A model generated the notes under the pieces. It had not been told where the DNA came from. It saw nothing but the letters and a program-made list of their open reading frames with translations, and did no database searches. From Chloroflexota bacterium (GTDB lineage: Bacteria; Chloroflexota; UBA5177; JAJPKF01): 64,000 nt of DNA. Each line of letters opens with the position of its first letter. Position 1 is the first letter of the stretch. The stretch covers positions 1,814-65,813 of the forward strand of contig DASRCF010000089.1 of the NCBI GenBank assembly GCA_035653255.1, given 5' to 3'. Below, piece after piece: positions 3,530 through 26,199 of the stretch. Position numbers and translations under genes: made by a program.

Positions 3530-4761
3530 CCTGCCGCTGCGCGCGCCCGCGTTTGTGCGATGATCCCACGAAGCGCCCGTGCCAGCTTGGTGGAGTCGTG
3601 CCGGATCACCGTCACGGTTTGCTCACTGGCCGTGCCCAGCTCCGGATCCAGCGTCAGCCTGGTCTCATTGATGACGTCCATGATGTCCGCTTCGATGACC
3701 GTCGAGCCGGCAATGTTGAGCATCGTCGAGCCCGGGAAGCTTCCTCCCAGGACAACCTTGGAAGCGTCGATGTGCTCTTCGGGCGTCACCATGATCGGAA
3801 ATGAGCCCGTGACCTCGTAGCGGTTGAGGATGTGGGATCCCGGGTAGCTTCGGTTGACGATGGTGTATTGGGGCGCGAAGCCGGCAAAATCACGAAATCT
3901 GGAGATGAAATCGGTGACGGTCCAGCCATCAGTGCGACCGGGCTCGGTCATCACGTTGCATATGAAGATGGTTGCCGCTCGTGCGGCCGCGAGGCGCTCG
4001 CGCAGCTTCGGCACCAGAAGACAGGGCACGACGCTGGTGTAGAAAGACCCCGGCCCAAACACGATCAGGTCCGAAGACTTGATGGCGGTGTCCAACTCCT
4101 GAGGAACGGCCCACGAGGAGGTGTCGGCAGGTGTACGGCTATCGGAGGATAGGAAGAGCTCTTCGACCGGCTGGTGTAGATCACGCTCTATCTCCGCGGC
4201 GCCGGCCACCACCTGCCCATCGGTGAGCCGGGCACAAAGCTGGACATTTTCGGGCGTGGCGAACATTACACGGGCGTCGGGATGTGAGGTGCGCACAAGG
4301 CGTCCTATGGTGCGGTAGTCGCTGCCGACGGCCGGCACTGCTGCCACCCGCCCCACGCTGTCGCTCAGCGCATTCAAGACAATGAGCAGACCCATGTGGC
4401 CGCTGAATAGAGTGGCATCGGGCAGGCCCTGACGCGAAACCGCGCTCAGCACCATCGACTGCCCGGCCTGCTGCTCGACCAGAGATAGGGTGAGGCCAAA
4501 GCGCCCCCGGTGCAGTCGCCAGATTCCAACCAGGACAAGAAGCAGGCCGAGGCCGAAGATCGCGAGCCCCTGTACGATCTTGCCGGCAAAGCGCAGCGTG
4601 ATGTCGTCGACCGCGTTCGCCGGCAGGATATGTCGAAGCAGGTTTAGAACCACCTCGCCGAGGCCGGCTCCGAGCAGCATCACGCCGACGGCCAGCACCA
4701 CCAGCCAGAGGTTACCTGTGGCTCCAAATCCACGCCGTCGCATCAAGACCTCACACTCCAA
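3526..4761 (-). CDS. YvcK/UPF0052 (CofD-like, gluconeogenesis-factor family) paralog with an N-terminal two-helix membrane anchor and a degenerate glycine-rich loop
   Basis: The C-terminal family motifs are intact ('DLIVFGPGSFYTSVVPCLLVP', 'ICNVMTEPGRTDGWT'). The usual 'IGGGTG' loop reads 'FSGHMGL'. The first ~100 aa contain two strongly hydrophobic segments. Confidence 0.75.
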   Translation of the reverse strand: MECEVLMRRRGFGATGNLWLVVLAVGVMLLGAGLGEVVLNLLRHILPANAVDDITLRFAGKIVQGLAIFGLGLLLVLVGIWRLHRGRFGLTLSLVEQQAGQSMVLSAVSRQGLPDATLFSGHMGLLIVLNALSDSVGRVAAVPAVGSDYRTIGRLVRTSHPDARVMFATPENVQLCARLTDGQVVAGAAEIERDLHQPVEELFLSSDSRTPADTSSWAVPQELDTAIKSSDLIVFGPGSFYTSVVPCLLVPKLRERLAAARAATIFICNVMTEPGRTDGWTVTDFISRFRDFAGFAPQYTIVNRSYPGSHILNRYEVTGSFPIMVTPEEHIDASKVVLGGSFPGSTMLNIAGSTVIEADIMDVINETRLTLDPELGTASEQTVTVIRHDSTKLARALRGIIAQTRARAAAG

Positions 4762-4915
4762 GCCCAGGCGATTTCACAATGATGCGAGATCAGCGGCTGC
4801 ACCTCTCGGGCCGGTCTCCGGTGGTGGCGAGTCAGGCGGCGTTTCAGCCCGCTTCGGCCGGCTCTCAAGAGCCGGACAGGCCGCACTCGCGAAGTGCCCT
4901 ACCATCGATTAGCCT

Positions 4916-5950
4916 GTGGGAGTATATCAACCTTCGCCGCCGCCGTCAACAGTACCGAGAGCAGCACGTGTGCTGTTCATCGGCGGCGGCACTGGTGCGC
5001 CTGAGCTTCTCGTCGCCCTTCGCGACCGCCTCCCTGAGTCGGTGTGCTCCATTGTCGTGCCTGTGACCGATACCGGACGCAGCACTGGAGTAATCCGCCG
5101 CGTACTGGGCATTCCGGCTCCGGGGGACCTGCGTCACTGCCTCACCACCCTGGCCGGCTCCCGCTCGGAGTGGGGACGAACACTTGAGCGCCGGCTGCGC
5201 GCTCCCCCGGATGGCGGCTTTGACGGCATGGCGGTCGGCAACCTCGTGCTCGGGGCACTGACCCAGGAGACGGGCAACATCGGTCTGGCTGCCGGGCGAC
5301 TCTCCTCAATGCTCGGCGTGGCCGAGCAGGTGCTCCCGGTCAGCTTGGAAGACATCCACCTGTCAGCCGAGCTGGAGGACGGCACCAGGGTGCACGGCGA
5401 GTACGAGGTACGGCGCCCGGGCAAACAGGCCATCCGCTCGCTGTTCATTGAGGGTCAGCAAGAGGGAGCATGGGAGCCCGTTCGCACTGCCATCGAGGAG
5501 GCGACCCACTGCGTGCTGGGGCCCGGAAGCTTGTGGACGAGTCTTGGAGCGGTCCTGGAAGTCAGAGGCATTCGTGAAGCGCTGGCAACCTCGAGCGCTC
5601 GGATCCTATTCGTCTGCAACACCACCACCCAGCCCGGTCAGACCGATGGGCTCGACTTTCAAGGTCACATCGGGGTGGTGACCCGTCTCTCCGGTCGCGC
5701 GCCGGATGTCGTGCTTGCCAACACCGGCCAGCCCGAGCCGGACCTGGAAGAGGACCTGGCCCTCCATGATCTGCACATGGTGTACCCGCCGGCCATGGCC
5801 GGCCAGGATTCCGCCAGCGTCATCATCGGCAAGGACTTCCTGGCACGGTCGCGACCCGACAGGGACTGGCAGAAGCTGCACACTGCCTATCACGACATGA
5901 ACAAGGTGGCCGCCGCCCTGGTTCCGCTCATTCAGGAGGGCGCGGAGTGA
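4916..5950 (+). CDS. YvcK/UPF0052 family protein (canonical)
   Basis: The family motifs are all present: 'VLFIGGGTGAPELL', 'VTDTGRSTGVIRRVLGIPAPGDLRHCL', 'LGPGSLWTSL', 'FVCNTTTQPGQTDG'. The gene is divergent from the other YvcK paralog. Its start is either GTG 4916 or GTG 4970. Confidence 0.8.
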   Translation: MGVYQPSPPPSTVPRAARVLFIGGGTGAPELLVALRDRLPESVCSIVVPVTDTGRSTGVIRRVLGIPAPGDLRHCLTTLAGSRSEWGRTLERRLRAPPDGGFDGMAVGNLVLGALTQETGNIGLAAGRLSSMLGVAEQVLPVSLEDIHLSAELEDGTRVHGEYEVRRPGKQAIRSLFIEGQQEGAWEPVRTAIEEATHCVLGPGSLWTSLGAVLEVRGIREALATSSARILFVCNTTTQPGQTDGLDFQGHIGVVTRLSGRAPDVVLANTGQPEPDLEEDLALHDLHMVYPPAMAGQDSASVIIGKDFLARSRPDRDWQKLHTAYHDMNKVAAALVPLIQEGAE

Positions 5951-5980
5951 ACCCGGCCTTCAGAGTTTGTCTGCTGGGAT

Positions 5981-6003
5981 GGTTGCTGAATCCGGAAGCA
6001 ACC
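5981..6003 (+). terminator. stem-loop (7-bp stem GGTTGCT/AGCAACC, 9-nt loop) 31 nt after the YvcK2 stop, with no U-tract
   Basis: This is a perfect inverted repeat read directly from the sequence. It is not followed by a T-rich run, so a terminator role is uncertain. Confidence 0.25.
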
Positions 6004-6446
6004 TCCCGAACGCTTCCGCGGCGGTGACTCCCGGTGCACTCGTCCTCTGTACAAGCCAGAAAGGGCAGGCCGTAACACCGGCAGTATTCCCCTCCTCGAA
6101 CCCCAACCCGTGGGGAAGTTGGCGGGCCGACGCAAAAGTCTTCCCGCTCCCGCGTTCGGACCTCGTGACGTACCCCACACCCGACCAGGGCCCTTCGGCT
6201 GCTATTCGGCGTCGGCATTTTCTGCTGCCCCCGGCCGAATGCCGAGCCATGGTAGAGTGACACCTGCGCAGTCGCTTTGATGGGGCCAATCTTCCTACAG
6301 GCGACGAGTCCAGCGATGGGGGAGGTGTCTGCGAGCCAGGCTCACGGCGCCGGCGGCTCGTCCCCGCATCTCGCGCGCCCTATGCCATCTACCCCGTGGG
6401 GTGGAGACCGCGCGTCCTTCGACTCACCTCTAGGAGGATCATCGAA

Positions 6447-7664
6447 ATGGGACCTACGCGACTCATCCGGATCGCAGTCATGCCGCTCGCTCTGGCCCTC
6501 ACTCTGACTCTTCCCCTGCTCGGTTTCTCGCCGGCGGCCACGGGTGCTCCAGTGACACGGCACCTGGTATCCAGCGCCGTCAAAATAGAGATCCCCTTCG
6601 CTTTGTGGCCGTGTTCATGTGACAAGCGCAGCTTCGATCCCCAGCAGATTCGGAGCCAGAGCTCGAACCCCAACGCCGCCTACCACCGCGACCAGTACCA
6701 GAACGTGGATTCGGCATTGTTCCAGTACCGCGATGTCCCTCTAAACATCGGGAGTCAGACCATCCACCAGACCTGGCTCGCCACCCGTTACGCCGGCTCA
6801 GAAAACGCCTCAGACAGTCTCGACGACGCGACTTCGAACCTTGATGGACAGGGGAACTCGCAGCAGGGGTGCACGGATCAGAACAACCAGGCCGTGTCCA
6901 ACTGTGCCATTTATCTTCTGAGTCTGCGGGACGGGGACGGCAACCCCACGTCTTACGTTCTGTACGCCATATTCGCCATCGGCGCCACCGTCGGCGAGGT
7001 CAATCAGCACTACACGCTCGCCCAGTACGACGACAGCCACATTCAGGCAGCCCTGGACCGAGACTTCTTCCTGCTCCTCTCGGCGGCTTTGTCGGCGGTC
7101 CGCGCGGGTGGAAGTGGAATCAACCAGGGAGCTTGGCCCAGCCCGGAGTCCATGAACGCGCGCCTCTCGGCTGCCCAGGCTGACAGCGTCAAGATCAACC
7201 CGATTCCCTCACCCCTACGCAACCAGACCTACGCTAAGAGCGGGATGACAGCAGGTGTGCTGGAACGTGAGGTCTTGGCCGTTGGGCCGGGCAATCTCTA
7301 CAGTGGGATCTGGCTCGGATCGCTGTACTCATCTGCGGCCAAGGCAGCCGCAAGATACCAGAGGATCGAGACCTACCTAGGCAGCGGATCCTTCCGTGGA
7401 AGCTGTAGCAAGCCGAGCGGGAAGAGTGGTGCCACACCAAGCTGCGCCTTTTGGCAGCTCCCACCGGGCACACGAGGCATCTCCAATGGAGTCCTTTACG
7501 GTATTTTTGCCGTCGGCAACACCGTCGGTGAGGTCGCGGTGCTCGGAAGTCCGGCTGACTTCTCCAACAGCAGCCGCTTACAAATCCTCAAGAAAGCGTT
7601 TCGATCGCTGCTCACGGGCGGACTCGAAGCTGAGTACCAAGCCAACGGGCTCCAGGTGCCCTAA
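6447..7664 (+). CDS. secreted hypothetical protein made of two tandem copies of a Cys-pair / 'Y-x-F-A-[VI]-x-x-T-V-G-E-V' module
   Basis: SD 'TAGGAGGA' lies 8 nt before ATG 6447. The N-terminus is a signal peptide ('MGPTRLIRIAVMPLALALTLTLPLLGFSPAATGA'). The internal repeats are 'CTDQNNQAVSNC...YVLYAIFAIGATVGEV' and 'CSKPSGKSGATPSC...VLYGIFAVGNTVGEV'. The ORF track starts the frame at 6396. Confidence 0.6.
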   Translation: MGPTRLIRIAVMPLALALTLTLPLLGFSPAATGAPVTRHLVSSAVKIEIPFALWPCSCDKRSFDPQQIRSQSSNPNAAYHRDQYQNVDSALFQYRDVPLNIGSQTIHQTWLATRYAGSENASDSLDDATSNLDGQGNSQQGCTDQNNQAVSNCAIYLLSLRDGDGNPTSYVLYAIFAIGATVGEVNQHYTLAQYDDSHIQAALDRDFFLLLSAALSAVRAGGSGINQGAWPSPESMNARLSAAQADSVKINPIPSPLRNQTYAKSGMTAGVLEREVLAVGPGNLYSGIWLGSLYSSAAKAAARYQRIETYLGSGSFRGSCSKPSGKSGATPSCAFWQLPPGTRGISNGVLYGIFAVGNTVGEVAVLGSPADFSNSSRLQILKKAFRSLLTGGLEAEYQANGLQVP

Positions 7665-7749: not shown

Positions 7750-7793
7750 GCACACGTTGCTGTGTGCACCATTGCAAATCTGCAGCAACCAGG

Positions 7794-10439
7794 ATGGATA
7801 GTTACGTGCGTGATACCCCTCTTAGAAGAGTCGTAAGCGTTCTCTCATCGCTCGCTCTGGCATCAAGCGCCGTTTTCGGGGCGGGTGCCGTTGCTTCACT
7901 GGCGGCGTCGCCATCACACGGGGCCACCCTCAGGGGCCAGGCTGTCATTCGCGGCGAGGTCGCACCACCGATCCTCAACCATGCGGCCAGGCTGATAGGC
8001 GCTCGCAACCCGGCGTCACGCATGGGAGTCTCGGTGGCCCTGCCGCTCCGTCATCCGGCCGAGCTGGACCGGCTGATCAATCGTATTGAGCTGGGCCAAG
8101 CCCGTCCCATCAGTCAAGCTCAGTTCGATGCCCGCTATGGGCAGCCGGCGGCCCGGGTCGTCGCCGTCACGCGCTGGGCCGCCTCGTATGGACTCCATGT
8201 CATCTATCACAGTCCGGACGGCCTTGACGTCAGCCTAGACGGAACTACTCAAGCCTTCGACCGAGCGCTCCGAATCCGCGTCAACGACTATCGCCTGGGA
8301 AGCCGGAGATTTTTCGCGGCAGCATCCAACCCGTGGGTGCCGGCGAAGCTTCACATCATGACCATCGTCGGTCTCAACAGCCTGATTCACGGCTACGCTC
8401 TCGGCCTGCATCGGCGAAGCTTTCCCGCCGGCGGTTACACTCCCAAGGAGCTTCGGGCCGCCTACGACGTGTCTCAGCACGCCGGCAGTGGCGCCGGCCA
8501 GACAATCGGCTTCACCCTTTGGGGCTCACCCACCCCCGCGGCCGACTTCAACAAGTTCTCCACCGTGACCGGCGATGCCCACATCACGCAATGCGCCGCC
8601 ACCACGACCGTCCCCACGCCCGCGGCCTGCCAGGGGACACACGCCGCCAACACCATCCAGTGGGTGCAGCTCGACGGCAAGAGCAACGACCTCCGCGGCA
8701 ATGACGAGACTGCGATGGATGTCGAGGAAGCGCACGGCATAGCGCCCAACAGTCACCTCAAGTACTTCCTGGGCGACGACGGCTCAGGCCAGGGTCTCGT
8801 CGATGTGATCGCGGCGGCGGCCAACGATACCGACAAGACCCTGCACGCAGTCAGCAACAGCTGGGGTGCCTGCGGTCCGGGACCCGGTGCCGGAGGCTGC
8901 ACCAGCCTGGTCAACGCGCAGACCAGCGAATTCAAACATGCCGTGGCTACCGGGAGAACCTTCTTCTTCTCCAGCGGCGACTCCGCCGCCTTTTCGGGCT
9001 GCCCGCGCCACGGCACCGAGCTACAGGTCACCTGCAACGGCACGCCCGAGCCGAGTTGGCCCGCCGACAGCCCGTTGGTGGTCGCCGTCGGAGGCACCAA
9101 CCTGCAGATGAACAGCAGCTTCACCGCCTATTCTTCTGAGAGCGTCTGGAGCAACCTCCAGTTCGGAAACTCCAGCGCCTACTCGGTCTCCGGGGGCGGC
9201 AGCGGTTGCGCCTCCTTCTTCGGCCGCCCACTGTTTCAGCAGGGCGTGGCCGGCGTGACCGCGAACGCTACGTGCGCGGGCCGTGCCGAGCCGGACGTCG
9301 CCGCCGATGCCGACGCCTCGAGCGGTGTGCTCGAGATCGCCACCTCGACCAACCAGAACAACCAGAATCCCAAGCAGGTCCAGTTCGTCGACGGCGGGAC
9401 GAGCCTGGCGGCACCACTCTGGACGGGAATGTCCGCCGACACCAACAATTTCCTGCTGGCACACCACAGGGCACTCCAAGGATTCTGGGCGCCGGAGATC
9501 TACAAGCTGGCGCAGACGGCCAGGTACGACAGCTACTTCCACGACGTGGTCTGCGGCTTCAACGGGTCTCCTGCCTCTCTCGGCTGGGACCAGGCGACCG
9601 GTTGGGGAAGCCCTGACTGGTTCAATCTGACCGAAGGCATCGCCGGCATAGCCGTGGGCGCCAAGCCGGCGCCTTCGAATTGCCAGATTCCGGCCTCAGA
9701 AGCGGTGGCGACGGCCGAGGCCAGCCTCAAGCTGCCCTTCAAGTTCTGGCCTCCAGGCACCGAAGCCAGCACCGAGCGGGTTCGCAGTGCGGGTGACAGC
9801 ATCTTCGACGATGCCACCTGCGATCAAACGAGTTGCAACAACTTCTTCCGCCAGTTCCATGGGCACAGCTACGCCAGCTTCGGCTTCAAGGGCGGAGCCG
9901 AGGAGCAGGCGGTGTTCACGATCGGGGGCGACTCAAGCAGCCCATTCGCCTTTTTCGCCGGCAGTTACTACCCCAACAGTCTCGACGCGCACAGGGTCAT
10001 CGAGGATGCGGTGGCGCACGCCAATAGCGCCTTTCACATAGGCAGCTTCGATTGCTCGGTCAACCTGGAGGGCGTCAGCACGCTGACGCCGGATTGCAAG
10101 GCGATGCAGTTCCAGTTCCCCGGCCCTCCGGTCGTCGACGCCACCATCTATCTCTTTGCAGTGAACAACACCGTCGGCGAGCTGATCGTTGAGGCCAACG
10201 ATAGCACAGTGAGCGCCAGCCAGAGCAATACCAACACCTATCTTGCTGATTCGGACCACTTAGCCGGGTTCGAGATTGCGCAGCTCTACGTGGCCTCGAA
10301 CGCTACCTCCGTGGTCTATCCGGCGCCGTCACTCCGACACCGGGCGTTAGGTCCGCTGAAATTCGATGCCGTGCCCAGCCTTCGCCTCTCAGAAGGGCCC
10401 GCACGAGATCTGCCTACCCCTTCCTCTATCAGTCGATAG
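7794..10439 (+). CDS. S53 family serine-carboxyl peptidase (sedolisin/kumamolisin-like) with a ~300-aa C-terminal extension
   Basis: It has a signal peptide, a pro-kumamolisin-type activation region, and a catalytic domain with 'GGTSLAAPLWTG' (the SGTSxAAP serine motif). The C-terminal extension carries 'CDQTSCNNF...DCKAMQFQFPGPPVVDATIYLFAVNNTVGEL', which is homologous to the repeats of the upstream ORF. An alternative start is GTG 7764. Confidence 0.85.
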   Translation: MDSYVRDTPLRRVVSVLSSLALASSAVFGAGAVASLAASPSHGATLRGQAVIRGEVAPPILNHAARLIGARNPASRMGVSVALPLRHPAELDRLINRIELGQARPISQAQFDARYGQPAARVVAVTRWAASYGLHVIYHSPDGLDVSLDGTTQAFDRALRIRVNDYRLGSRRFFAAASNPWVPAKLHIMTIVGLNSLIHGYALGLHRRSFPAGGYTPKELRAAYDVSQHAGSGAGQTIGFTLWGSPTPAADFNKFSTVTGDAHITQCAATTTVPTPAACQGTHAANTIQWVQLDGKSNDLRGNDETAMDVEEAHGIAPNSHLKYFLGDDGSGQGLVDVIAAAANDTDKTLHAVSNSWGACGPGPGAGGCTSLVNAQTSEFKHAVATGRTFFFSSGDSAAFSGCPRHGTELQVTCNGTPEPSWPADSPLVVAVGGTNLQMNSSFTAYSSESVWSNLQFGNSSAYSVSGGGSGCASFFGRPLFQQGVAGVTANATCAGRAEPDVAADADASSGVLEIATSTNQNNQNPKQVQFVDGGTSLAAPLWTGMSADTNNFLLAHHRALQGFWAPEIYKLAQTARYDSYFHDVVCGFNGSPASLGWDQATGWGSPDWFNLTEGIAGIAVGAKPAPSNCQIPASEAVATAEASLKLPFKFWPPGTEASTERVRSAGDSIFDDATCDQTSCNNFFRQFHGHSYASFGFKGGAEEQAVFTIGGDSSSPFAFFAGSYYPNSLDAHRVIEDAVAHANSAFHIGSFDCSVNLEGVSTLTPDCKAMQFQFPGPPVVDATIYLFAVNNTVGELIVEANDSTVSASQSNTNTYLADSDHLAGFEIAQLYVASNATSVVYPAPSLRHRALGPLKFDAVPSLRLSEGPARDLPTPSSISR

Positions 10440-10590
10440 CTTACAGCACAGCGAGAGGCCGGCCGCGCTCGAGGGAGCGTGGCCGGCCTATGTTTTTCAT
10501 TCAGTAAGCCCACACGGTCAAAGCCCCGCCGCCTGCTTCCATCCAACCCAGTAGCCGACGGCGCCTTCCGACCCGCTCGCGACAACAGAA

Positions 10591-10616
10591 AATCCCGGAG
10601 CATATGCTCCGGGATT
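10591..10616 (-). terminator. intrinsic terminator for the small minus-strand ORF (13-bp perfect stem AATCCCGGAGCAT/ATGCTCCGGGATT followed on the minus strand by TTTCTGTTG)
   Basis: It is a perfect palindrome. On the minus strand it runs straight into a T-rich tract, 28 nt after the ORF stop. Confidence 0.5.
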
Positions 10617-10643
10617 CTGTGCGACGAGTACTACTGAGGTGGT

Positions 10644-10802
10644 CTAGGAGCAGGGAATACTGCAGCCACTGGTGTGGGTGCTGTTGCAGCTGGTGACGGC
10701 GTGAACCTCCAGGCGGCCCCGATACACGATCGCCGGGGTCTCATACGGCTTGCGCTCCTGGGGGTTCGCCTTCTGCTCGGACGCCTTGGGATTCTCGCTC
10801 AC
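10644..10802 (-). CDS. 52-aa peptide with a Ser/Thr/Cys-rich C-terminus (MSENPKASEQKANPQERKPYETPAIVYRGRLEVHAVTSCNSTHTSGCSIPCS)
   Basis: A GTG start lies 5 nt after the SD GGGAGGAG. The ORF has its own terminator and is not in the ORF track because it is under 60 aa. Its organisation is leader-like N-terminal part plus a core-like C-terminal part. Confidence 0.45.
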   Translation of the reverse strand: MSENPKASEQKANPQERKPYETPAIVYRGRLEVHAVTSCNSTHTSGCSIPCS

Positions 10803-11161
10803 AGGTGCTCCTCCCTATCTCAACTGGTCATGTAACAGATTACAGCAGGTGACCAATTTCGCGCTATTCGTCGGTATCCCCTCCGGCACGATCGGTTCAA
10901 TTCCACTGTACCAAGGCATCTCTCCGATGTAAAGTGTCGGTCGCGGGCTCGCTCGCGAGCGGCCACCCTCAGACCCTCCTTGCCAGCCTCGAAGCAGACC
11001 GAAGTATCTTGGAAGAGCGCCTGAGCGCGGACGGAGGAGATGTCCGAGGGTGCTTCAGGGCGGGGTCTGCCGATCGAGGCTGCCGTACGGACGGTAACAC
11101 GAGCCTCCGTGTGGCCCCTACGCCACCCGAATGCCTGATGCCATTTTTTGAGAGGAATGAG

Positions 11162-12877
11162 ATGTTTGAAGAACTTCCCGAGAATGCCTCCGGAATCCTC
11201 ACCTGGACCTGGCCGGACTTCGAGCCGTACTTCCTGGAGCTGCTGGCGCTCGAGCTCACACCCCAGACACTGAACACGTACCTCCAAAGCTGGACACGGT
11301 TCGGGACCCTCATCGGAGAGGTCTATCAGCGTCTCTACGTCGCCAAGACGCGTAACACTGCGGACCCCGAGGTCGAGGATTGGTTCAACACGTATCTCGA
11401 GACGACGTACAGCATGGCCGAGGAGGCGGACCAACGCCTAAAGGAGAAGCTCCTCGACTCCGGTCTTGAACCCGAAGGCTTCGACATTCCACTCAAGAAG
11501 ATGCGGGCCGATGCCGAGCTGTTTCGCGACGAGAATCTCCCTCTGCAAACGGCGGAAGAGAAGATGGCATCCGAATACGATGAGATTGTCGGCCGGCAGA
11601 CGATCATCTGGAACGGGACCGAGCTGCCGCTCCCACAGGCTCGAGTGCTCCTACAGGATCCAGAGAGGATGGTCCGTGAGCAATCATGGACGTTGACCAT
11701 GGAGCGGCAGTTAGCCGATAGGGGCGCCATCAACGAGCTCTGGAAGCGCAAGCTGGACAATCGCCTACGCCAAGCCTCAAATGCCGGTTTCTCCGACTAT
11801 CGCTCATACATGTGGCTGCAGAAGCACCGCTTCGACTACGGGCCTGAGGAGTCAGTCGCGTTTCAGAACGGTGTCGCCGAGGTGGTCGTTCCCGCGGCCG
11901 AGCGGCTGAGGCATCGCCGGCGGGAGTCCTTGGGACTCGACCGCCTGAGACCTTGGGACCTCGACGTGGACGAAGACGGCAAGGATCGACTCCGCCCCTT
12001 CGAGACTGCGACAGAGCTGATTGAAGGTACCGGAAGAATGTTCAACCAGGTCGACCGGAGGCTGGGCGACTACTTCCAGATCATGGTGGACGGCTCTCTG
12101 CTGGACCTCGACAGTCGGAAGAACAAGGCTCCCGGCGGCTACTGCACCACGTTCGCGGCCGCTCAAAGGCCGTTCATCTTCATGAACGCTGCCGGCACGC
12201 ATCGCGATGTAGAAACGCTGCTGCATGAGGGCGGCCACGCGTTTCACAGCTTCCAGGTACGACATCTGCCCTATGCTCAGCAGCGGTCGGTTGGGCACGA
12301 GTTCGCCGAAGTGGCGTCAATGTCGATGGAGCTGCTCGCGGCGCCCTATCTCTCTCGACAGGAGGGTGGGTTCTACTCGCCCGCGGAAGCCGCTCGCGCG
12401 AGAAGGCAGCATCTCGAGCGAGTGATCACGTTGTTGACCTCGGTGGCCCTCGTCGACGGGTTCCAGCACTGGGTCTACTCCAACCCTGACCTGGCAGAGC
12501 AGCCCGATCGGTGCGACGAGCAATGGAGCCTGCTGTTTGAGCGCTACAACCCGGGGGTAGATTGGAGCGGCTACGAGGATGAGCTATCCACCGGTTGGCA
12601 TCGCATCCTCCACATCCATCAGGTCCCGCTTTACTACATCGAGTACGGAATCGCCCAGCTCGCGGCCATCAAGGTATGGGAGCAGGCGAGGGAGGATCAG
12701 GGGCGGGCGGTCGACCGTTACCTCTACGCCCTCTCATTGGGTGGGACGAGATCCCTGCCGGAGCTGTTCCAAGCCATCGGAGCGGACTTTGACTTCACGG
12801 CCCGTGCCTTCCGGCCAACCGTAGCCCTGTTGGAGCAGACAATCGAAGATCTGCGCCAGGTCGAGGCAGCTGCCTGA
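11162..12877 (+). CDS. pepF: oligoendopeptidase F (M3 family zinc metallopeptidase)
   Basis: The zinc motif 'HEGGHAFHSF' (HExxH) is present, along with PepF-like overall similarity. The internal ATG 11162, with SD 'GAGAGG', gives the typical ~570 aa. The ORF track opens the frame at 10934. Confidence 0.85.
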   Translation: MFEELPENASGILTWTWPDFEPYFLELLALELTPQTLNTYLQSWTRFGTLIGEVYQRLYVAKTRNTADPEVEDWFNTYLETTYSMAEEADQRLKEKLLDSGLEPEGFDIPLKKMRADAELFRDENLPLQTAEEKMASEYDEIVGRQTIIWNGTELPLPQARVLLQDPERMVREQSWTLTMERQLADRGAINELWKRKLDNRLRQASNAGFSDYRSYMWLQKHRFDYGPEESVAFQNGVAEVVVPAAERLRHRRRESLGLDRLRPWDLDVDEDGKDRLRPFETATELIEGTGRMFNQVDRRLGDYFQIMVDGSLLDLDSRKNKAPGGYCTTFAAAQRPFIFMNAAGTHRDVETLLHEGGHAFHSFQVRHLPYAQQRSVGHEFAEVASMSMELLAAPYLSRQEGGFYSPAEAARARRQHLERVITLLTSVALVDGFQHWVYSNPDLAEQPDRCDEQWSLLFERYNPGVDWSGYEDELSTGWHRILHIHQVPLYYIEYGIAQLAAIKVWEQAREDQGRAVDRYLYALSLGGTRSLPELFQAIGADFDFTARAFRPTVALLEQTIEDLRQVEAAA

Positions 12878-12885
12878 CCGATGGA

Positions 12886-12902
12886 GGCTGAAGCTTTCAG
12901 CC
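12886..12902. terminator. hairpin between the convergent pepF and MFS genes (GGCTGAA gct TTCAGCC)
   Basis: The inverted repeat overlaps the stop codon of the MFS gene. No clear U-tract follows. Confidence 0.25.
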
Positions 12903-14168
12903 TGCAGGCTCAAGGGTGCGTGAAGACCTGCGGCCTCTCATTCGCCAGATGTAGATGGCGATCGTGCATGCCAGGGTGATACCCGCGCCCAGGGCAAAGG
13001 CGGCAGGGCTCCCCGCAGTCTGTGCCACCGCTCCGGCGAGAAGACTGCCAATGGGCGTGACTCCGAGAAACATCAGCGAGTACACGCTCATCACCCGGCC
13101 CTGAAGGCTCACCGGGGTCAGCTCCAGCACCCGCGTGTTGGCGGTGGTGGTGAAGAGTGTAGCGGCCAGACCAGTCGGGAAGAGAATGAGCAGTGCGACG
13201 GGGTAGCTGCGCACGAAGGCGAAGATCAGCTCGAGGATGAGGAAGCCGAACGCGCCGCCATATATCAGCCGCCTCGAGAACTCGCGCGAGGTCCAGAAGG
13301 ACAAGAGAACAGCACCCGCGAGCGATCCGGCGCCCTGAAAGGCGAGGAGAACACCGAAGCCGCTTGACTGTTGATGGAGGATATACCGAGCGAAGACCGG
13401 CAGAAGCGTGGTGAAGTTGAGAGCGAAGAGGCTGGCGATGCCCACCAGAGCAAGAATGACCAGCACTCTGACGTCGCGGAAGATGTACCGTATTCCCTCA
13501 AACAGATCGGCTAAGTACGTGGCCGGCTCACGCGTCTCTACGGCGCCTTCTGCTTTCGGAGTCTTAATGAGCATCAGTCCGCCGATGACAGCCAGGTAGC
13601 TGGCGGCGTTCACATAGAAGGCCATCGCCGGGCCGACGGCCGCATACAGCAGGCCTCCTAAGGCGGGTCCGACCACTCGAGCAGCATTGAATATGGCCGA
13701 GTTGAGCGCCACGGCGTTCATCAGGTGCTGCCGCGGGACCAGCTGAGGAACGAACGACTGCCGAGTGGGGGTATAGAAGGCGTTCACCAGGCCAAGAGCT
13801 CCGGCCAAGAGAAGGATATGCCAGAAGCGCACCAGGTGAAACAGCGTGAGTGTTGCCAGAATGGTGGCCAGGACGAGCGAAGCGACCTGTGTCAGCAGTA
13901 GGAGAAATCGCTTATCAACGCGATCCGCTACCGGTCCGGTGAAGAGCACCAATACCAGCAGCGGCATGAACTGAACGGTGACCACCAGCCCAACCTGGAA
14001 GGCCGAATGCGTCAGCTGCAGCACCAGCCACTGCTGGGCAACGCTCTGCACCCAAGTACCGGTGAGTGAGATCGTCTGCCCAAACCAGAAGATCCGGAAG
14101 GGCCGGCTCTGAAGCGCGGGCAGGCGAATACGGGCGTCCGGCTCGTCCGCCTGGACGGGTTGAGTCAT
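12897..14168 (-). CDS. MFS transporter (EntS/MFS_3-like)
   Basis: The protein has 12 predicted TM segments and typical MFS N-terminal motifs ('FRIFWFGQTISLTGTW'). Confidence 0.8.
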   Translation of the reverse strand: MTQPVQADEPDARIRLPALQSRPFRIFWFGQTISLTGTWVQSVAQQWLVLQLTHSAFQVGLVVTVQFMPLLVLVLFTGPVADRVDKRFLLLLTQVASLVLATILATLTLFHLVRFWHILLLAGALGLVNAFYTPTRQSFVPQLVPRQHLMNAVALNSAIFNAARVVGPALGGLLYAAVGPAMAFYVNAASYLAVIGGLMLIKTPKAEGAVETREPATYLADLFEGIRYIFRDVRVLVILALVGIASLFALNFTTLLPVFARYILHQQSSGFGVLLAFQGAGSLAGAVLLSFWTSREFSRRLIYGGAFGFLILELIFAFVRSYPVALLILFPTGLAATLFTTTANTRVLELTPVSLQGRVMSVYSLMFLGVTPIGSLLAGAVAQTAGSPAAFALGAGITLACTIAIYIWRMRGRRSSRTLEPAG

Positions 14169-14255: not shown

Positions 14256-15374
14256 CTACGCGAACGGCAGCACGAATATGAAACGCGAGCCGCGGCCCTC
14301 TTCGCTCACCACTCTTAGGTTGCTCCCATGAAGGCTCAGCAGATGGCGCGCGATGGCGAGCCCCAACCCGGTACCCTGATCGCGGCTCCGGCCCTCGTCG
14401 ACCTTGTAGAAGCGCTCGAAGATCCGGGCGGCCTGTCCTCTCGTCATACCGACGCCCGTGTCGACCACCTCGACATGTGCGCTGCGGCCGTCTCGACGGG
14501 CCCGTACGGTTGCCGAACCGCCCGCTGGTGTGAACTTGATGGCGTTATGAACGAGATTCATCAGGACCTGCTCGAGTGCGGAAGGATCAGCCAAAATCGG
14601 AGCCAATCCCGACTGCACGTCCGCAACCAGATGCACGCCCTTCTCCTCGGCGGCCATGGCCAGGCGGCTCATGACCTCATCCACAACATGACCAAGCTCG
14701 ACCGCTTCGAGCTGGAGGCTGAGCCTACCCGACTCGAGCCGCGACAGCTCTAGCAACTCCTCCACCAGCCGGTTCATGGAGTGTGTCTCCACCTGAATCC
14801 GATGGAGAAAGTGCGCCCGGGCATCCGGTTCCGCGTCGGCGCCACTGGCGAGGGTCTCGACCAGGAGATTGATCGATGCCAGTGGCGTCCTCAGCTCGTG
14901 CGACACGTTGGCGACGAAGTCGCGACGAACGGTTTCGAGGTGGCGCAGTCTGGTCACGTCCGTGACCGAAACGATGGCATAAAGGGCCTGCCCACCGGGG
15001 TCGAGGATGGGCACGATTTCGAACACGAGAATCCTGTCCGGATCGGGCAGGAAGGCTTCATGAGTAACCTTGCGCCGGTCATGAATGGCATCGCCGATGG
15101 CGAAGCCGGCGTTCACGTCACGGATGGCATCTCCCACCCGGCAGGGAACCTGTCCCTCGTACCCCAGCAGCATCCGGGCGGCTGGGTTCAGCTCCAACAC
15201 GCTGCGGCGGCTGTTGACAACCAGCAGGCCGCGAGCGTCCTGCTCCATGAACTGGCGGAATGCCTGCCCATAATCGGGCAGCTCCGGGTCGGAGGTCAGG
15301 TCGACGCTGCCCTGAACCTCCTGAGCTGAACTGTGTCCTGTCTTCTCGCCGCGCCTGGCTGCGGTCGTGCTCAC
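14256..15374 (-). CDS. phoR: sensor histidine kinase (PAS-HisKA-HATPase), PhoR/SenX3-like
   Basis: It carries an H-box 'HELRTPLASI' and a C-terminal HATPase_c domain with N/G1/G2 boxes. It is co-oriented with the response regulator and pstS. Confidence 0.8.
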   Translation of the reverse strand: MSTTAARRGEKTGHSSAQEVQGSVDLTSDPELPDYGQAFRQFMEQDARGLLVVNSRRSVLELNPAARMLLGYEGQVPCRVGDAIRDVNAGFAIGDAIHDRRKVTHEAFLPDPDRILVFEIVPILDPGGQALYAIVSVTDVTRLRHLETVRRDFVANVSHELRTPLASINLLVETLASGADAEPDARAHFLHRIQVETHSMNRLVEELLELSRLESGRLSLQLEAVELGHVVDEVMSRLAMAAEEKGVHLVADVQSGLAPILADPSALEQVLMNLVHNAIKFTPAGGSATVRARRDGRSAHVEVVDTGVGMTRGQAARIFERFYKVDEGRSRDQGTGLGLAIARHLLSLHGSNLRVVSEEGRGSRFIFVLPFA

Positions 15375-16072
15375 GATGAAGGTGAAGGCTTGGGCGCGAT
15401 CTCGAACACATAGCCGACGCCATGGACTGTCCGAATTGCCTGGCTGTGCCCGGTGCCCTCGAGCTTGGCCCGCACCCTCCGCACATGCACGTCGACCGTC
15501 CGTTCGCCAACGAATTCATGGCCCCAGACTGCAGAAAGCAGGCGACCTCGGCTCAGCACGGTGTCCGGATGGCGCACGAAGTAGGCCAGGAGATCGAACT
15601 CACGCGGCTGGAAGCTGATCTGAACGCCGTCAATCACCACCTTGCGGCCCCGAGGGTCCACAACCAGCCCGTCATGTTCAATCGGCGCCTCGTCCTCCAG
15701 GCCCCTGTCCATCGCGACCCGTCGTAGGTTGGCTTTGATACGCGCCAGCAGCTCACGGAGCGCGAACGGCTTGGTTACGTAATCGTCCGCCCCGATCTCG
15801 AGGCCGACGACGCGGTCGACATCCTCTACCCGCGCAGTCATGATGATGATGGGTGCAGTGCTGAATGCGCGGATGCTGCGGCAGACATCGAACCCGTTGC
15901 CTCTGGGAAGCATGAGATCGAGCAGGATGAGATCGGGGCTCTCCTGCCGCGCCAAGATCAGGGCACTCTCGGCGTCCTCGGCCGTGATCGGTGTGTAATC
16001 CTCCCGGCGGAGGTTGTATGTCAGCGCGTCGCGAAGACTGCGGTCGTCTTCGACGACAAGGATCTTGGTCAA
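15371..16072 (-). CDS. phoP: OmpR/PhoB-family response regulator, PhoP/RegX3-like
   Basis: A receiver domain ('ILVVEDD...LILLDLMLP') is followed by a winged-helix trans_reg_C domain. It overlaps the kinase gene by 4 nt. Confidence 0.85.
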   Translation of the reverse strand: MTKILVVEDDRSLRDALTYNLRREDYTPITAEDAESALILARQESPDLILLDLMLPRGNGFDVCRSIRAFSTAPIIIMTARVEDVDRVVGLEIGADDYVTKPFALRELLARIKANLRRVAMDRGLEDEAPIEHDGLVVDPRGRKVVIDGVQISFQPREFDLLAYFVRHPDTVLSRGRLLSAVWGHEFVGERTVDVHVRRVRAKLEGTGHSQAIRTVHGVGYVFEIAPKPSPSS

Positions 16073-16128
16073 GCTGCTAGTACCTGGCTCATCCTACTGG
16101 TTGGATTCCTCACGTGGCCGAATTGCAA

Positions 16129-16159
16129 AGAGGCCGGCCTCGATTTGAGGCCGGCCTCT
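16129..16159 (-). terminator. terminator after pstS (13-bp stem AGAGGCCGGCCTC / GAGGCCGGCCTCT, loop GATTT, then TTTGCAATT on the minus strand)
   Basis: The stem is perfect and GC-rich. It lies 19 nt after the pstS stop. Confidence 0.5.
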
Positions 16160-16177
16160 CTGCTGTTTCGTCGACAG

Positions 16178-17230
16178 CTAACCCTTGACCTGAGCAAGCT
16201 GCTTCGTGTCGTACTTCCTGATCGCCTTCGGAAGGGGCACGTAGTCATTTGGCTTGCTGTACTTCTGCCCCGTATTGACGAGCCAGCGGAACAGACCAAC
16301 GAGCGCGGTCCTCTTTGCCTTGTCCGGGTTGACCTTGTAGACTCCCACCCAGCTGTACCCGGAGATGGGGTAGCTGGCTTTGCCCTTGGCATTCACGATG
16401 CTGAAGTGCGTGGCGGAGATATTCGGAAGCTTGCGGGCATCGGTGAGCACACTCTGCAGCGTGGCGTGCACGAACTTGCCGGCACGATTCTCGATGGCCG
16501 CAGTGGCAATCTTGTTCTGCAGCGCATAGGCAAGCTCGACGTAGCCAATGCCACCCTCGGTGCTCTTAACCAGAGCCGACACCTGAGAGCTGCCCTTGCC
16601 GGCGGAGCCGGTGGGCCATGGCGGAGTCTTCGACGTGCCGACCGCCTTCTTCCAGGCTTTGCTCACGTTGCTGAGGTAGTCGGTAAAGATGTATGAGGTG
16701 CCACTGCTGTCGGAGCGATGAACCACGGCAATGGCCTCATTGGGCAGTTTCTTGCCCTTGTTGAGCTTCTTGATGGCCTTGTCGTTCCATTTGGTGATCT
16801 TGCCCATGTAGATGTTCGCGAGCACCGGTCCCGACAGCTTCAGGCCGCTGACGCCTTTGACGTGGTAGATGATCGACACACCGCCGAGGGTGACCGGGAA
16901 CTGGACGATGGGGCCCTTCGCCGCGTGAAGGTCGGCCTTCATCATTGGAACATCGAAGGCTCCGAAGTCGTCGAGCTTCGCTTCCAGATTCTTCTGTCCG
17001 GTCCCGCTGCCGACAGGATCATAGCTCACGGTTACGCCGTGGCCATAGTGAGGAAATGCGGCCGCGAACAGCGGCGCGTCGAACGTCGAGCCGGAGCCGT
17101 TCAGCCGGACGGTGGAACTCCGGGAATGCAACTCCGAGGGTCGCGAGGCCAACGCCGAGCTGATGGATATGCCGGCAACCGCAGCGAGAGCGCCGAGGGT
17201 AAGCAGGATCGATATGAGGCGTTTCGTCAC
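16178..17230 (-). CDS. pstS: phosphate ABC transporter substrate-binding protein
   Basis: It has a signal peptide and the PstS N-terminal signature 'GSGSTF...GSGTGQ'. Confidence 0.85.
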   Translation of the reverse strand: MTKRLISILLTLGALAAVAGISISSALASRPSELHSRSSTVRLNGSGSTFDAPLFAAAFPHYGHGVTVSYDPVGSGTGQKNLEAKLDDFGAFDVPMMKADLHAAKGPIVQFPVTLGGVSIIYHVKGVSGLKLSGPVLANIYMGKITKWNDKAIKKLNKGKKLPNEAIAVVHRSDSSGTSYIFTDYLSNVSKAWKKAVGTSKTPPWPTGSAGKGSSQVSALVKSTEGGIGYVELAYALQNKIATAAIENRAGKFVHATLQSVLTDARKLPNISATHFSIVNAKGKASYPISGYSWVGVYKVNPDKAKRTALVGLFRWLVNTGQKYSKPNDYVPLPKAIRKYDTKQLAQVKG

Positions 17231-17258
17231 GTGTCTATATCTCCTTTGTTTTTGCCTG

Positions 17259-17300
17259 ATTGCACCTCATTGTCAAGAGAAAGACATTTCGGAATTGTTA
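17259..17300 (-). promoter_or_regulatory. putative Pho-box-like repeats upstream of pstS (TAACAAT...GACAAT(10)GCAAT on the minus strand)
   Basis: This is an AT-rich patch with repeated (A/C)ACAAT units 30-70 bp upstream of pstS. The heptamer TAACAAT recurs upstream of pstC (19523-19533). Confidence 0.25.
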
Positions 17301-17386
17301 CCGAGGCTTTGCCGAAGAGTTTCAGCCTTCAGGATGTCCCGCACCATGTCGGAGAGCGAGACCCGCGACTTGTCATTCCCGGAGGT

Positions 17387-18343
17387 CTAGGAAAGGTCGA
17401 GATTGCGCGAGAGGGTCCGGGCTCGTGAGAGAAGCACCTGAACCTTTTCCGGACCGGCCCGCCCAAGATAGTGAGGCCAGGACAGAGTCACCGTCAGCAG
17501 CTCTGCTGAAGCTGCTCCGATGCGCAGTGCCTGGTCATCTATCGATCGGCCGTGTACCTCTACGACCTCCTCGACATACCAATCGAGAAGCGTCTGATCG
17601 TGGAACTGTGCACCGTCCGCTGTCGACCGAGTGAAGAATTGGGCGACATCCTCCGGACCACGAGCTCGCCGTACTTCCTGCCAGTCGATCCAAACAACGT
17701 CGCCGCCGTCGTCTCGAAGTAGGTTTCCAGCATGGAAGTCCCCGTGTCCGAGCGTCTCCGGCAGTATTTCGATCCGGTCGAGGAGAAGGGGAACCGACTC
17801 AAAAAGGCGCCCGAGAAAGTGGGATGCTTGCCTTTTGTCGACTGAGTTGGTTACCTCCGGTCTCTCAAGAACGTCTCGCCAGGCTGTCGCAGCACCTTGC
17901 GTGGCTTCCGCATCCGCAGTCCATGTCCATCTGCCGAGCCAGTCCCATGACTCAAGCTCTCGGGAATCTTCCCAGAACATCGCCTGGAGCCGGCCCAGAC
18001 CTCGGAATGCGTCCTCCAGGAGGCGGTACGGCCATCGGTCGACTGACTGCAGCGGATGATATGCCTTCAAGACAAGCCCGACCCAATCCGGTTCCACCCT
18101 GAGGTCCAGGACCTCCGGCACGCGAATGGGCACGATGGGCCCAAGCTCCGAATAGAACCGTGCCTCGCGCATCGATCTGTCACGGCTGGTGCTTCCGAGT
18201 AACGGCGTGAACTTGAGCACCGCCGCGGTGTCTGCCCTCCACACCGGCACCACGGAGGCACCGGACACTGCCGGACCTGAAAGCCCTAACTCGTCCTCAC
18301 GTAGACGGAGGCGCATTAGGTCGATTGCTTCTTCGAGGCTCAT
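17387..18343 (-). CDS. phosphotransferase-family protein (APH/ChoK-like kinase fold)
   Basis: It contains the Brenner motif 'HGDFHAGNLL' and 'VWIDWQ'. The start is set at the internal ATG 'MSLEEAIDL'. The ORF track extends the frame to 18415. Confidence 0.7.
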   Translation of the reverse strand: MSLEEAIDLMRLRLREDELGLSGPAVSGASVVPVWRADTAAVLKFTPLLGSTSRDRSMREARFYSELGPIVPIRVPEVLDLRVEPDWVGLVLKAYHPLQSVDRWPYRLLEDAFRGLGRLQAMFWEDSRELESWDWLGRWTWTADAEATQGAATAWRDVLERPEVTNSVDKRQASHFLGRLFESVPLLLDRIEILPETLGHGDFHAGNLLRDDGGDVVWIDWQEVRRARGPEDVAQFFTRSTADGAQFHDQTLLDWYVEEVVEVHGRSIDDQALRIGAASAELLTVTLSWPHYLGRAGPEKVQVLLSRARTLSRNLDLS

Positions 18344-18425
18344 GCTGCTCAGTATCGTCGGTTGCGGCCGCCCCCGATATCCGCACCGAGAAGATTGAAA
18401 CCGAACTGCAACCATCGCAACACAT

Positions 18426-19493: not shown

Positions 19494-19533
19494 CAGGGAG
19501 GTCACAGCCCCGTAACAGTTTGTTAACAATCGC
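19491..19533 (+). promoter_or_regulatory. three direct TAACA(G/A) repeats at 22- and 11-bp spacing upstream of pstC (putative PHO boxes)
   Basis: The units are gTAACAGggag, cgTAACAGtttg and tTAACAATcgc. The 11-bp periodicity is typical of PhoP/PhoB-type direct-repeat operators. Confidence 0.25.
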
Positions 19534-19695
19534 CCGCGTACGCTCGGATGAGCGGCATGCGGGGCCGCCTGCAAAGGCGACAGCTGAAGCGGAGACGCTA
19601 CAGGAGTCGGGCGGATTGGGGTTTGTAAGTATCGTACGTCTGCGCCCAGCGGACCGTAGGAAGGTGGGAGGCGTCCCTCGCGGCGGCCGGCTTCG

Positions 19696-22554: not shown

Positions 22555-22624
22555 AAATGTGGACCACCCGGCCTTCGGCTGAGGCGCATCCGGAAGTAGC
22601 CGGTCGTCGGGGCGCCGAGTCTCG

Positions 22625-26119: not shown

Positions 26120-26199
26120 GTTCGGAACCTAAAGCCGGATGTTCGGAACGGAAACCCGGATGTTCGGAACGGAGACCCAGACGTTCGGAAAGGGGAATC
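26116..26199. repeat. four tandem 21-bp direct repeats (iteron-like), core (g)ATGTTCGGAACGGA
   Basis: GTTCGGAA(C/A) starts at 26120, 26141, 26162 and 26183, an exact 21-bp period. The first unit overlaps the right arm of the inverted repeat. Confidence 0.7.

Follow-up and report, generated by a model that had tools for sequence, protein, structure and literature searches.

We analysed a 64,000-nucleotide stretch of the Chloroflexota contig DASRCF010000089.1 (hereafter the window) and, within it, a 52-codon micro-gene on the minus strand at 10644-10802, which the original prediction had described as a possible precursor of a ribosomally made peptide that carries post-translational modifications (RiPP). 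Our results suggest, with a probability of roughly three in four, that this gene is the trans-encoded precursor of a radical S-adenosylmethionine (rSAM) system at locus L008, because the homologues of the peptide are linked to an operon of this type, and the organism of the window possesses the L008 operon, from which the precursor gene is missing at its customary place.

The features of the micro-gene are as follows (window coordinates).
10808..10815, minus strand: Shine-Dalgarno sequence GGGAGGAG, read from the sequence, with a 5-nt spacer (CACCT) before the GTG
10644..10802, minus strand: coding sequence of the 52-aa peptide, with the GTG start at 10802-10800, 52 sense codons and TAG at 10646-10644 (stop included)
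10698..10802, minus strand: leader, residues 1-35, of which 1-19 are variable and Lys/Glu-rich and 20-35 form the conserved block YETPAIVYRGRLEVHA with V-H-A at its end
10716..10745, minus strand: Y20-G29 block YETPAIVYRG, a YxxPx[IVL]-type motif and presumed PqqD-type recognition site
10647..10697, minus strand: predicted core, residues 36-52, VTSCNSTHTSGCSIPCS, from alignments and a hidden Markov model (HMM), with putative cleavage after Ala35
10584..10616, minus strand: intrinsic terminator, made up of an 11-bp stem and 4-nt loop (10616-10591) and then a U-rich tract to 10584
10905..10933, minus strand: candidate sigma-70-like promoter, TTTACA-17 nt-TACAGT with an extended-10 TG, a consensus match only

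Translation of this minus-strand open reading frame (ORF) gives MSENPKASEQKANPQERKPYETPAIVYRGRLEVHAVTSCNSTHTSGCSIPCS as the full product. The gene proved real and self-contained, with the Shine-Dalgarno sequence, GTG, 52 codons, stop, terminator and translation all as originally described. The terminator stem is perfect and GC-rich, lies 27 nt 3′ of the stop codon, and is followed by UUUUCUGUU. The 71-nt terminator stretch had a folding energy of -34 kcal/mol compared with -16.4±2.6 for shuffled sequences (z = -6.7), and none of 200 shuffles was as good. A simple terminator scan did not pick up this hairpin, but did pick up the terminator of a convergent S53 peptidase gene at 10456-10489, which the micro-gene terminator faces. 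Since it possesses its own intrinsic terminator, the micro-gene is probably monocistronic. The promoter scan returned one sigma-70-like site against 0.2 expected from shuffles, and this candidate sits in the intergenic region that separates the peptide gene from a divergent M3 peptidase gene. The GC content at third codon positions of the ORF is 0.87 and that of the window as a whole is 62.8%; an Rfam search at the locus gave no match. The gene had been taken to be unannotated, but NCBI already lists it as the hypothetical protein VFB34_04475 / HZT96075.1 of a Chloroflexota metagenome-assembled genome (MAG), and it was called, identical, in four independent assemblies.

The peptide belongs to a family for which no curated model exists: even with the threshold relaxed to E <= 1, Pfam and NCBIfam returned nothing for this peptide or six further members. 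With the window peptide alone as query, a word-indexed search found only the self-match. In a profile search, five homologues of full length (51-58 aa, 57-67% identity) came from JGI metagenomes and a further one from an indel-ridden contig. Exhaustive searching with HMMER contributed P0003, a true relative whose contig is indel-ridden, as well as P0002, a protein with a threefold tandem repeat that was discarded as a spurious match. The P0003 locus is riddled with frameshifts (L003:1362-4296), as in a long-read assembly, and the called peptide is 81 aa long; because of these frameshifts its C-terminus after 'SCNQT' is unreliable. More distant members came to light when the sequence upstream of orthologous maturase genes was inspected and when all fetched loci were searched with an HMM. 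Neither the peptide alignment nor the maturase alignment gave a match among 185,579 species-representative genomes. A metagenome scan with the peptide alignment likewise gave none, and the same scan with the maturase alignment gained only L014, duplicates and distant relatives. The peptide family is known only from metagenomes.

Within this family the homologous small ORFs that the original prediction had asked for could be compared codon by codon. Across the 32 alignable conserved codons, the pairwise proportion of synonymous differences (pS) was 0.55-0.86, which is near saturation, and that of nonsynonymous differences (pN) was 0.04-0.18, with pN/pS ratios of 0.08-0.26. The window gene compared with three homologues gave pN/pS values of 0.18-0.26 at pS values of 0.69-0.86. 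Codon differences among the members were concentrated at third positions, and all of the homologous precursor genes have a GGAG or GGAGG Shine-Dalgarno sequence 5-9 nt before the start codon. The 52-codon ORF is a genuine gene under strong purifying selection.

Conservation is distributed very unevenly along the peptide. Residues ~1-19 are variable and rich in Lys, Glu and Arg across the family, and a block common to all members starts at Tyr20: YE-P-[AR]-[IV]-[VI]-[YFH]-[RK]-[GS]-x-[LM]-[ED]-x-[HY]-A. Y20, E21 and A35 are invariant, and P23, A24, G29, L31 and E32 show conservation of 90% or more, peptides with different cores included; the stretch Y20-G29 is the most conserved of all. The residues that follow are almost fixed in the closest subgroup (VTSCNxTTxxGCSIPC in that of the window) and wholly different in peptides of other operons, where the core types after Ala35 are YTNKLTSFTCLNITS, DICPSHDPTNANYKS, IVCTQKTVGCNGGTAST and VSCLKDPVGCSATTPSTS; more distant loci have the cores GACxKTGAGxCGxGPYVS and ASCLKASTATAGCTTLLS. 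A conserved leader joined to a hypervariable core is the signature of a RiPP precursor. When ten cores were compared, Cys, Ser and Thr were the only residue types present in every one. Each core contained one to three Cys residues, the first of them 3-4 residues past Ala35 in nine of the ten, and eight ended in Ser or Thr. The window core contains Cys39, Cys47 and Cys51 in a C39-x3-H43-x3-C47-x3-C51 spacing and has no acidic residue. His43 is not conserved, being Thr even in the closest relatives, and the window peptide carries an extra C-terminal Ser relative to its five closest relatives, which end in Cys. As Ala35 is the last family-wide invariant position, the boundary between leader and core is better placed after it, giving a predicted core of 17 aa rather than the 15 aa proposed originally.

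Small ORFs of related design were also seen in distant rSAM/SPASM loci of ~30% identity (L022-L025 and L076), where they lie uncalled 3′ of the rSAM gene, for example at L023:7133-7291. They have the leader KPYEKPxVVYRxKIEAxA and the two-Cys cores GACxKTGAGxCGxGPYVS given above, and therefore the precursor family reaches beyond the clade of the window.

The genomic position of the homologues provides the link to a modification system. The precursor gene lies directly upstream of a four-gene set in six of seven distinct orthologous operons, the exception being L008. The products of the module are a radical-SAM/SPASM protein, a ScmC-like P-loop protein, a recognition protein of the PqqD type and a ~145-aa protein resembling Sec11/SipW peptidases. 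The peptide gene was found 28-110 nt 5′ of the rSAM gene in L003, L006, L009, L010, L011/L012 and L014, and the leader-family peptides of the last four are 51-57 aa long. In L006 the homologue is followed, after 44 nt, by genes for a Radical_SAM plus SPASM protein (393 aa), a ScmC-family protein (271 aa) and a PqqD protein (88 aa), with the fourth gene clipped by the contig end. L003 has the same gene set as L006; assembly indels split the L003 rSAM gene over three frames, from which YRCNERCGMCY, LTGGEV, PYGEVHRAC, GNIRDKPFSEI and CNDCAIRDYCSACPG could be pieced together. A search with the L006 rSAM protein defined an orthologous clade of 11 proteins with 54-89% identity, the next match being at 38%; for the clade of the peptide-linked rSAM genes the identity is 52-89%. 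HMMs of the accessory proteins detected the four-gene module in all of the loci just named. The module was also present in the distant relatives L016-L025 and L050 with a different gene order, in some of which a leader-family peptide follows downstream of the rSAM gene. Each operon has one rSAM gene, and no YcaO or Lan enzyme was found in the seven operons or their flanks.

These results bear on the class assignment made originally. The proposal of a RiPP core behind a leader stood in its general form, with the Ser/Thr/Cys-rich C-terminus as a RiPP-type core and homologues upstream of an rSAM/SPASM plus PqqD operon; its chemical specifics fared less well. Azol(in)e and lanthionine chemistry was not supported, as no YcaO or Lan enzyme was found in the window, scanned to ~53 kb, or in any operon. 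A thioether is the leading guess for the modification; the maturase matched no curated thioether-forming family.

Stand-alone copies of the precursor gene occur in other organisms as well, at L004 and L005. The L004 copy is neighboured by genes for a cupredoxin-like (copper-binding-domain) protein and an MFS_1 transporter, and the L005 copy by a PQQ-repeat protein gene and IS21 fragments. Two called ORFs flanking the L004 precursor (11171-11326, 51 aa, and 9545-9763, 72 aa) were negative with the leader HMM. Large C25 (gingipain-like) peptidase genes adjoin three of the cis clusters (L009:2289-4946, L010:5041-8130, and L011:1064-3238 and 4207-6663). The secreted proteases near these loci belong to differing families, and their presence may be more than pure coincidence.

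The rSAM protein has the CX3CX2C motif and seven further invariant SPASM Cys residues, with no fused N-terminal RiPP recognition element (RRE). An AlphaFold2 model of it (mean predicted local distance difference test score 90.3, predicted template-modelling score 0.88) matched SkfB, PqqE, BlsE, SuiB, CteB, TigE and anSME in a fold search with TM-scores of 0.52-0.64, and SkfB was the nearest solved relative by sequence (E = 1.7e-12). It scored far below every NCBIfam cut-off, the top models being AhbD, NirJ2, TIGR04053 and ScmE. As judged from these matches, the protein is a peptide-modifying radical-SAM/SPASM enzyme outside the curated chemistry families. Assignment of its chemistry by homology was abandoned, as the fold search does not separate thioether from C-C or other rSAM/SPASM chemistry.

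The ScmC-like protein gave weak matches to ScmC (TIGR04249) and to the HprK-related kinases A and B. Its profile aligned with the nucleotide-binding core of ATP-dependent phosphoenolpyruvate carboxykinase (PEPCK) over 'lHAS..vFfGlSGtGKTTl..liGDDe', which we take to be the P-loop signature also found in HPr kinase; H118, G133, G138-K139 and D156 are invariant. The fourth protein has the invariant boxes S-x-S-M-x-P, GD, HR and GDA. Its profile matched the SEC11A/C signal-peptidase catalytic subunits best (E = 4e-6), then LexA, and NCBIfam placed it with archaeal-type signal peptidase I. It looks like a soluble Ser/His peptidase, the solubility being suggested because no obvious N-terminal membrane anchor could be read in the sequence.

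No such enzyme was found in the window itself, in agreement with the original observation that no modification enzyme is adjacent to the gene. A family scan of the window, which reached ~53 kb, found no radical-SAM, YcaO or Lan enzyme, and a CX3CX2C motif scan covering all 64 kb found no such motif in a genuine coding frame. The distal modification enzymes called for by the original prediction were instead found as the rSAM operon of L008, on another contig of the same genome, with the following genes (L008 coordinates).
203-709: OsmC
935-2101: rSAM/SPASM
2315-3103: ScmC-like
3145-3369: PqqD
3366-3809: Sec11/SipW-like ORF, 147 aa, intact but missed by gene callers, with a GTG start that overlaps the PqqD stop

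The L008 rSAM protein (P0010, HZT97452.1) is 70% identical to that of L006, and Pfam matches at L008 were all above their cut-offs (PF05402, 69 bits; PF04055, 71 bits; PF13186, 42 bits). Assignment of L008 to the organism of the window was based on four lines of evidence: a shared assembly, the NCBI accession block, co-occurrence in a sample, and tetranucleotide composition. ENA assembly ERZ27279673 contains both loci, the peptide gene on contig k141_428991 and L008 as contig k141_725160. HZT96075.1 (the peptide) and HZT97452.1 are both labelled 'MAG TPA Chloroflexota bacterium'; judging from the numbering, the locus tag would make the peptide about gene 895, and P0010 would then be close to protein 2270 in that submission. 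The JGI sample Ga0209810 also contains both, as L093 (the window gene in identical context) and L015 (the operon). The tetranucleotide correlation of L008 with the window was 0.985, compared with 0.965-0.98 within the window and at most 0.96 for other loci, and the GC contents are 0.638 and 0.628 respectively.

L007, L013 and L015 are further copies of this operon locus. No family peptide was detected on L008 (11.6 kb), L007 or L013, whether in the 225-nt gap 5′ of the rSAM gene, at the contig edge or elsewhere. Among the examined contigs of its organism, the window micro-gene was the sole member of the family. An OsmC-family gene flanks the operon in the organisms of both L006 and L008. The two genes are orthologous (L006:1602-2042, 58% identity) and inverted in orientation relative to each other, which points to a rearrangement exactly where L006 carries its precursor. 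Short CGAAAC-type repeats occur at L008 ~855-895, just 5′ of the rSAM gene, and resemble a 21-nt tandem repeat of the window, GTTCGGAACCGAAACCCGGAT x3.4 at 26120-26190, which is apparently non-coding; they may represent an intergenic repeat that occurs throughout the genome, or else a site bound by a regulator.

If the window gene is the substrate of the L008 enzymes, maturation might proceed as follows. The PqqD protein would bind the conserved leader block YETPAIVYRG (Y20-G29) and present the 17-residue core to the radical-SAM/SPASM enzyme, which would introduce at least one intramolecular crosslink, the likeliest kind being a thioether from Cys sulfur to carbon. The thioether is favoured because Cys occurs in every core type, in most cases with a constant spacing from the leader, and because the nearest solved relative SkfB is thioether-forming; even so, we hold this identification tentatively, at somewhat below even odds. 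The ScmC-like protein, using ATP, may then modify a Ser/Thr hydroxyl, possibly that of the C-terminal Ser, by phosphorylating or otherwise activating it, a step proposed by analogy with HprK-like kinases that act on lasso precursors. Finally, the Sec11-like peptidase would cut off the leader after V-H-A (-3/-1). Type I signal peptidases follow the -3/-1 rule, and cleavage after [AVT]-[HY]-A is proposed since it fits this rule and Ala35 is the last invariant position.

Several points weigh against the assignment of the window gene to L008 and against parts of this scheme. There is no maturase within the window, and the link is built on the homologues and on the genome assignment of L008, not on a closed genome. 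L008 stops ~200 nt past OsmC, upstream of which all three assemblies break, so that another cis precursor could lie beyond the contig end. No promoter motif common to the precursor gene and the L008 operon was found, the comparison giving two shared 8-mers against 1.1 expected. The rSAM protein is about equally distant from thioether-forming (SkfB, CteB) and C-C-forming (PqqE, SuiB) enzymes. Phosphorylation at the C-terminus cannot be general, because the terminal Ser is absent from five of the six closest relatives.

The same gaps in the evidence would suit an alternative in which evolution has left the window copy behind as a displaced duplicate that is unprocessed or rarely expressed, with another, undetected copy as the true substrate. 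The gene does lie away from the operon, amid unrelated housekeeping and peptidase genes and with no promoter motif in common with the operon, and the L008 contig end ~200 nt 5′ of OsmC leaves room for such a copy. However, a decaying duplicate accords poorly with an intact ORF, strong Shine-Dalgarno sequence, promoter-like site and terminator, with retention of every invariant or at least 90% conserved leader position, and with its being the sole family member in the examined contigs and identical in four independent assemblies; the stand-alone copies in L004 and L005 also suggest a normal arrangement over decay. We therefore regard this explanation as improbable. Slightly less probable again is a role as a redox-cofactor precursor in the manner of pyrroloquinoline quinone (PQQ) or mycofactocin, where a small piece of the core is excised after crosslinking to serve a partner oxidoreductase. 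The combination of peptide, PqqD-type chaperone and rSAM/SPASM enzyme is that of PQQ and mycofactocin, MftC and PqqE were among the NCBIfam matches, and the redox-related OsmC gene stands beside the operon in two organisms. Cofactor precursors such as PqqA and MftA keep an invariant reactive core, whereas here the core differs wholly between orthologous operons and has one to three Cys residues and no common motif beyond Cys/Ser/Thr. Moreover, no conserved partner dehydrogenase was seen in these operons, and the scores fall well short of the cut-offs (MftC, 96.7 against 265; PqqE, 91.8 against 381).

That the product might be an unmodified Cys/His-rich micro-protein, metal-binding or redox-active, had been put forward in the original prediction as an equal possibility. 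The regular C39-x3-H43-x3-C47-x3-C51 spacing and the copper-binding-domain protein next to the L004 copy would be in keeping with it, but His43 is replaced by Thr in the closest relatives, and other family members have a single Cys. Conservation sits in the leader instead, and in six operons the gene directly precedes a peptide-modifying rSAM gene accompanied by an RRE; the idea fits conserved leaders, hypervariable cores and operon linkage poorly, and we consider it very unlikely. A chance intergenic ORF is scarcely credible. The ORF is short, without a Pfam or NCBIfam match, in a GC-rich genome full of spurious ORFs, yet the family pN/pS of 0.08-0.26 at near-saturated synonymous divergence effectively refutes this, and the Shine-Dalgarno sequence in all members and the conserved position before rSAM genes argue in the same direction. 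Thus a precursor acting in trans with the L008 enzymes is the reading that we retain.

On this reading, the predicted working principle is that of an RRE-dependent rSAM/SPASM RiPP pathway, as in sacti- and ranthipeptides, PQQ and mycofactocin; the set of genes most resembles the uncharacterised SynChlorMet cassette of Haft, and the curated definitions of none of these systems apply. The sacti- and ranthipeptides (SkfA/SkfB, SCIFF CteA/CteB and subtilosin SboA/AlbA) share with the present system a small precursor whose N-terminal leader precedes a Cys-containing core, a maturase with CX3CX2C and a seven-Cys SPASM domain, and presumably PqqD-type RRE recognition, SkfB being nearest by both sequence and fold. 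In contrast, the maturase here scores below the curated cut-offs (StsB, 93.7 against 625; AlbA, 74.7 against 850; SkfB, 51.9 against 300), the RRE is a separate, unfused protein, the thioether is a candidate only, the operon adds a HprK/PEPCK-like P-loop protein and a Sec11-type peptidase, and the precursor has no curated model.

SynChlorMet cassettes consist of ScmC, ScmD (PqqD-like) and ScmE/ScmF (rSAM/SPASM), and thus resemble the present operons in combining a P-loop ScmC, a PqqD-like protein and an rSAM/SPASM protein. Among named models, the accessory proteins matched best to ScmC (TIGR04249, and Pfam PF27840 among precomputed matches) and ScmD (TIGR04248), and ScmE was among the top rSAM matches. 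However, all scores lie below the equivalog cut-offs (44.9 against 125, 47 against 100, 108.6 against 400 and 72.4 against 400), there is one rSAM protein here compared with two in the SynChlorMet models (ScmE and ScmF), and a Sec11-like peptidase is present. A literature search on ScmC, SynChlorMet, and HprK together with PqqD and SPASM found no paper.

A lasso peptide was also considered and rejected, for want of an acidic core residue, a cyclase and a B2 protease. Lasso leaders have a YxxPxL motif at -17 to -12, and their precursors are handled by PqqD-type B1 recognition proteins (PMC10368454); the YxxPx[IVL] motif of the window peptide would lie at -16 to -11 if cleavage occurs after A35. 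HprK-like kinases phosphorylate linear lasso precursors, including at the C-terminal Ser, one of them with a PqqD-type RRE (PMC8498205, PMC10368454). Compared with paeninodin and BsfA/BsfK, the system is similar in its leader YxxPx[L/I/V] motif ~16 residues before the core, in its discrete PqqD-type RRE and in the Ser that ends the window core. It differs in having no Asp/Glu at position 7-9 of the core, and indeed no acidic residue anywhere in it, and in that the operons encode a radical-SAM enzyme instead of an Asn-synthetase-like cyclase and B2 transglutaminase-type protease. Neither a lasso cyclase nor a B2 protease was found in the window scan or in the operons.

PQQ and mycofactocin biosynthesis (PqqA/D/E and MftA/B/C) likewise combines a small peptide, a PqqD-family chaperone and an rSAM/SPASM enzyme, and PqqE was the second-best fold match, but the core here is hypervariable, the reactive motifs of PqqA and MftA are absent, the accessory genes are others and the scores are under the cut-offs. 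For the separation of precursor and enzymes, a parallel is provided by prochlorosins, RiPP precursors that are encoded away from their biosynthetic genes. As in such systems, a lone precursor gene with its own putative promoter and terminator has its enzymes elsewhere, and stand-alone and operon-linked copies coexist; the enzyme class is a different one, and only one stand-alone copy was detected in this organism, whose operon is without a cis copy in the canonical position.

The peptide family and its enzyme set represent a new precursor family with unusual accessories and a precursor from a separate gene, of a kind that is already known. The family is uncatalogued in that no curated peptide model covers it, its enzymes fall under all family cut-offs, and it is absent from the 185,579 species-representative genomes. 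An HprK/PEPCK-like P-loop protein together with a Sec11-type peptidase is an unusual accessory pair for radical-SAM RiPPs, and the chemistry, if solved, would also illuminate the long-uncharacterised SynChlorMet-type cassettes. Radical-SAM RiPP families turn up regularly, so that the present case is a solid lead and no surprise. For what had been an anonymous 52-codon 'hypothetical protein', it proposes a role that can be tested, as the substrate of four defined enzymes, and adjacency-based RiPP mining tools would miss this precursor entirely. A more ambitious interpretation, which we consider doubtful, is that of a new RiPP class limited to uncultured Chloroflexota-like bacteria, in which an rSAM/SPASM enzyme would act together with a HprK/PEPCK-type kinase guided by an RRE and with a soluble leader peptidase of the Sec11 type. 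The product would bear an undescribed set of modifications, for example a Cys crosslink plus Ser/Thr phosphorylation or phosphate-dependent chemistry, and its precursor could be supplied wholly in trans from a self-contained micro-gene.

The genes next to the micro-gene in the window are the following.
7764-10439: S53/pro-kumamolisin peptidase, convergent with the micro-gene
10934-12877: M3 oligoendopeptidase, divergent from the micro-gene
12897-14168: MFS_3 transporter

The S53, M3 and MFS (major facilitator superfamily) genes were as originally stated, except for the name PepF: the best model for the M3 peptidase was TIGR02289 'M3_not_pepF' (435.7 bits, cut-off 442), and the PepF model scored 103 bits. 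Gene callers place the M3 start 76 codons later (571 aa), which gives a divergent intergenic region of 359 nt. The suggestion that the flanking peptidases and the MFS transporter supply leader removal and export was not supported, as the other stand-alone copies have different neighbourhoods, the MFS proteins are unrelated, and the operons encode their own peptidase. Three candidates for further parts of the system were set aside: the MFS transporters of the window and L004, which are not related to each other; the S53 genes, a pair of ordinary paralogues (7764-10439 and 48091-49767, 29% identity); and the 422-aa protein beside the first S53 gene, which is unrelated to the proteins without assignment near the second S53 gene and in L011. 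Each S53 gene is preceded by a family-less protein (6396-7664, 422 aa, and 46387-48066, 559 aa), and the two are mutually unrelated.

To ~53 kb, the window otherwise contains sugar-nucleotide genes, CofD-like genes, a Pho regulon block, membrane proteins and the second S53 peptidase. The phosphate regulon block (14256-23308) comprises genes for a PhoR-like kinase, a PhoB-like regulator, PstS, an APH-family kinase, a GGDEF protein, a Pst permease, PstB and PhoU. Two divergent CofD/YvcK-like paralogues lie at 3526-4761 (minus strand) and 4916-5950 (plus strand); one passes TIGR01826 (207 bits), the other fails it (113 bits), and both match the 'GAK system CofD-like' model weakly. Genes for tRNA-Cys(GCA) and tRNA-Gly(GCC) stand side by side at 51738-51897 on the minus strand.

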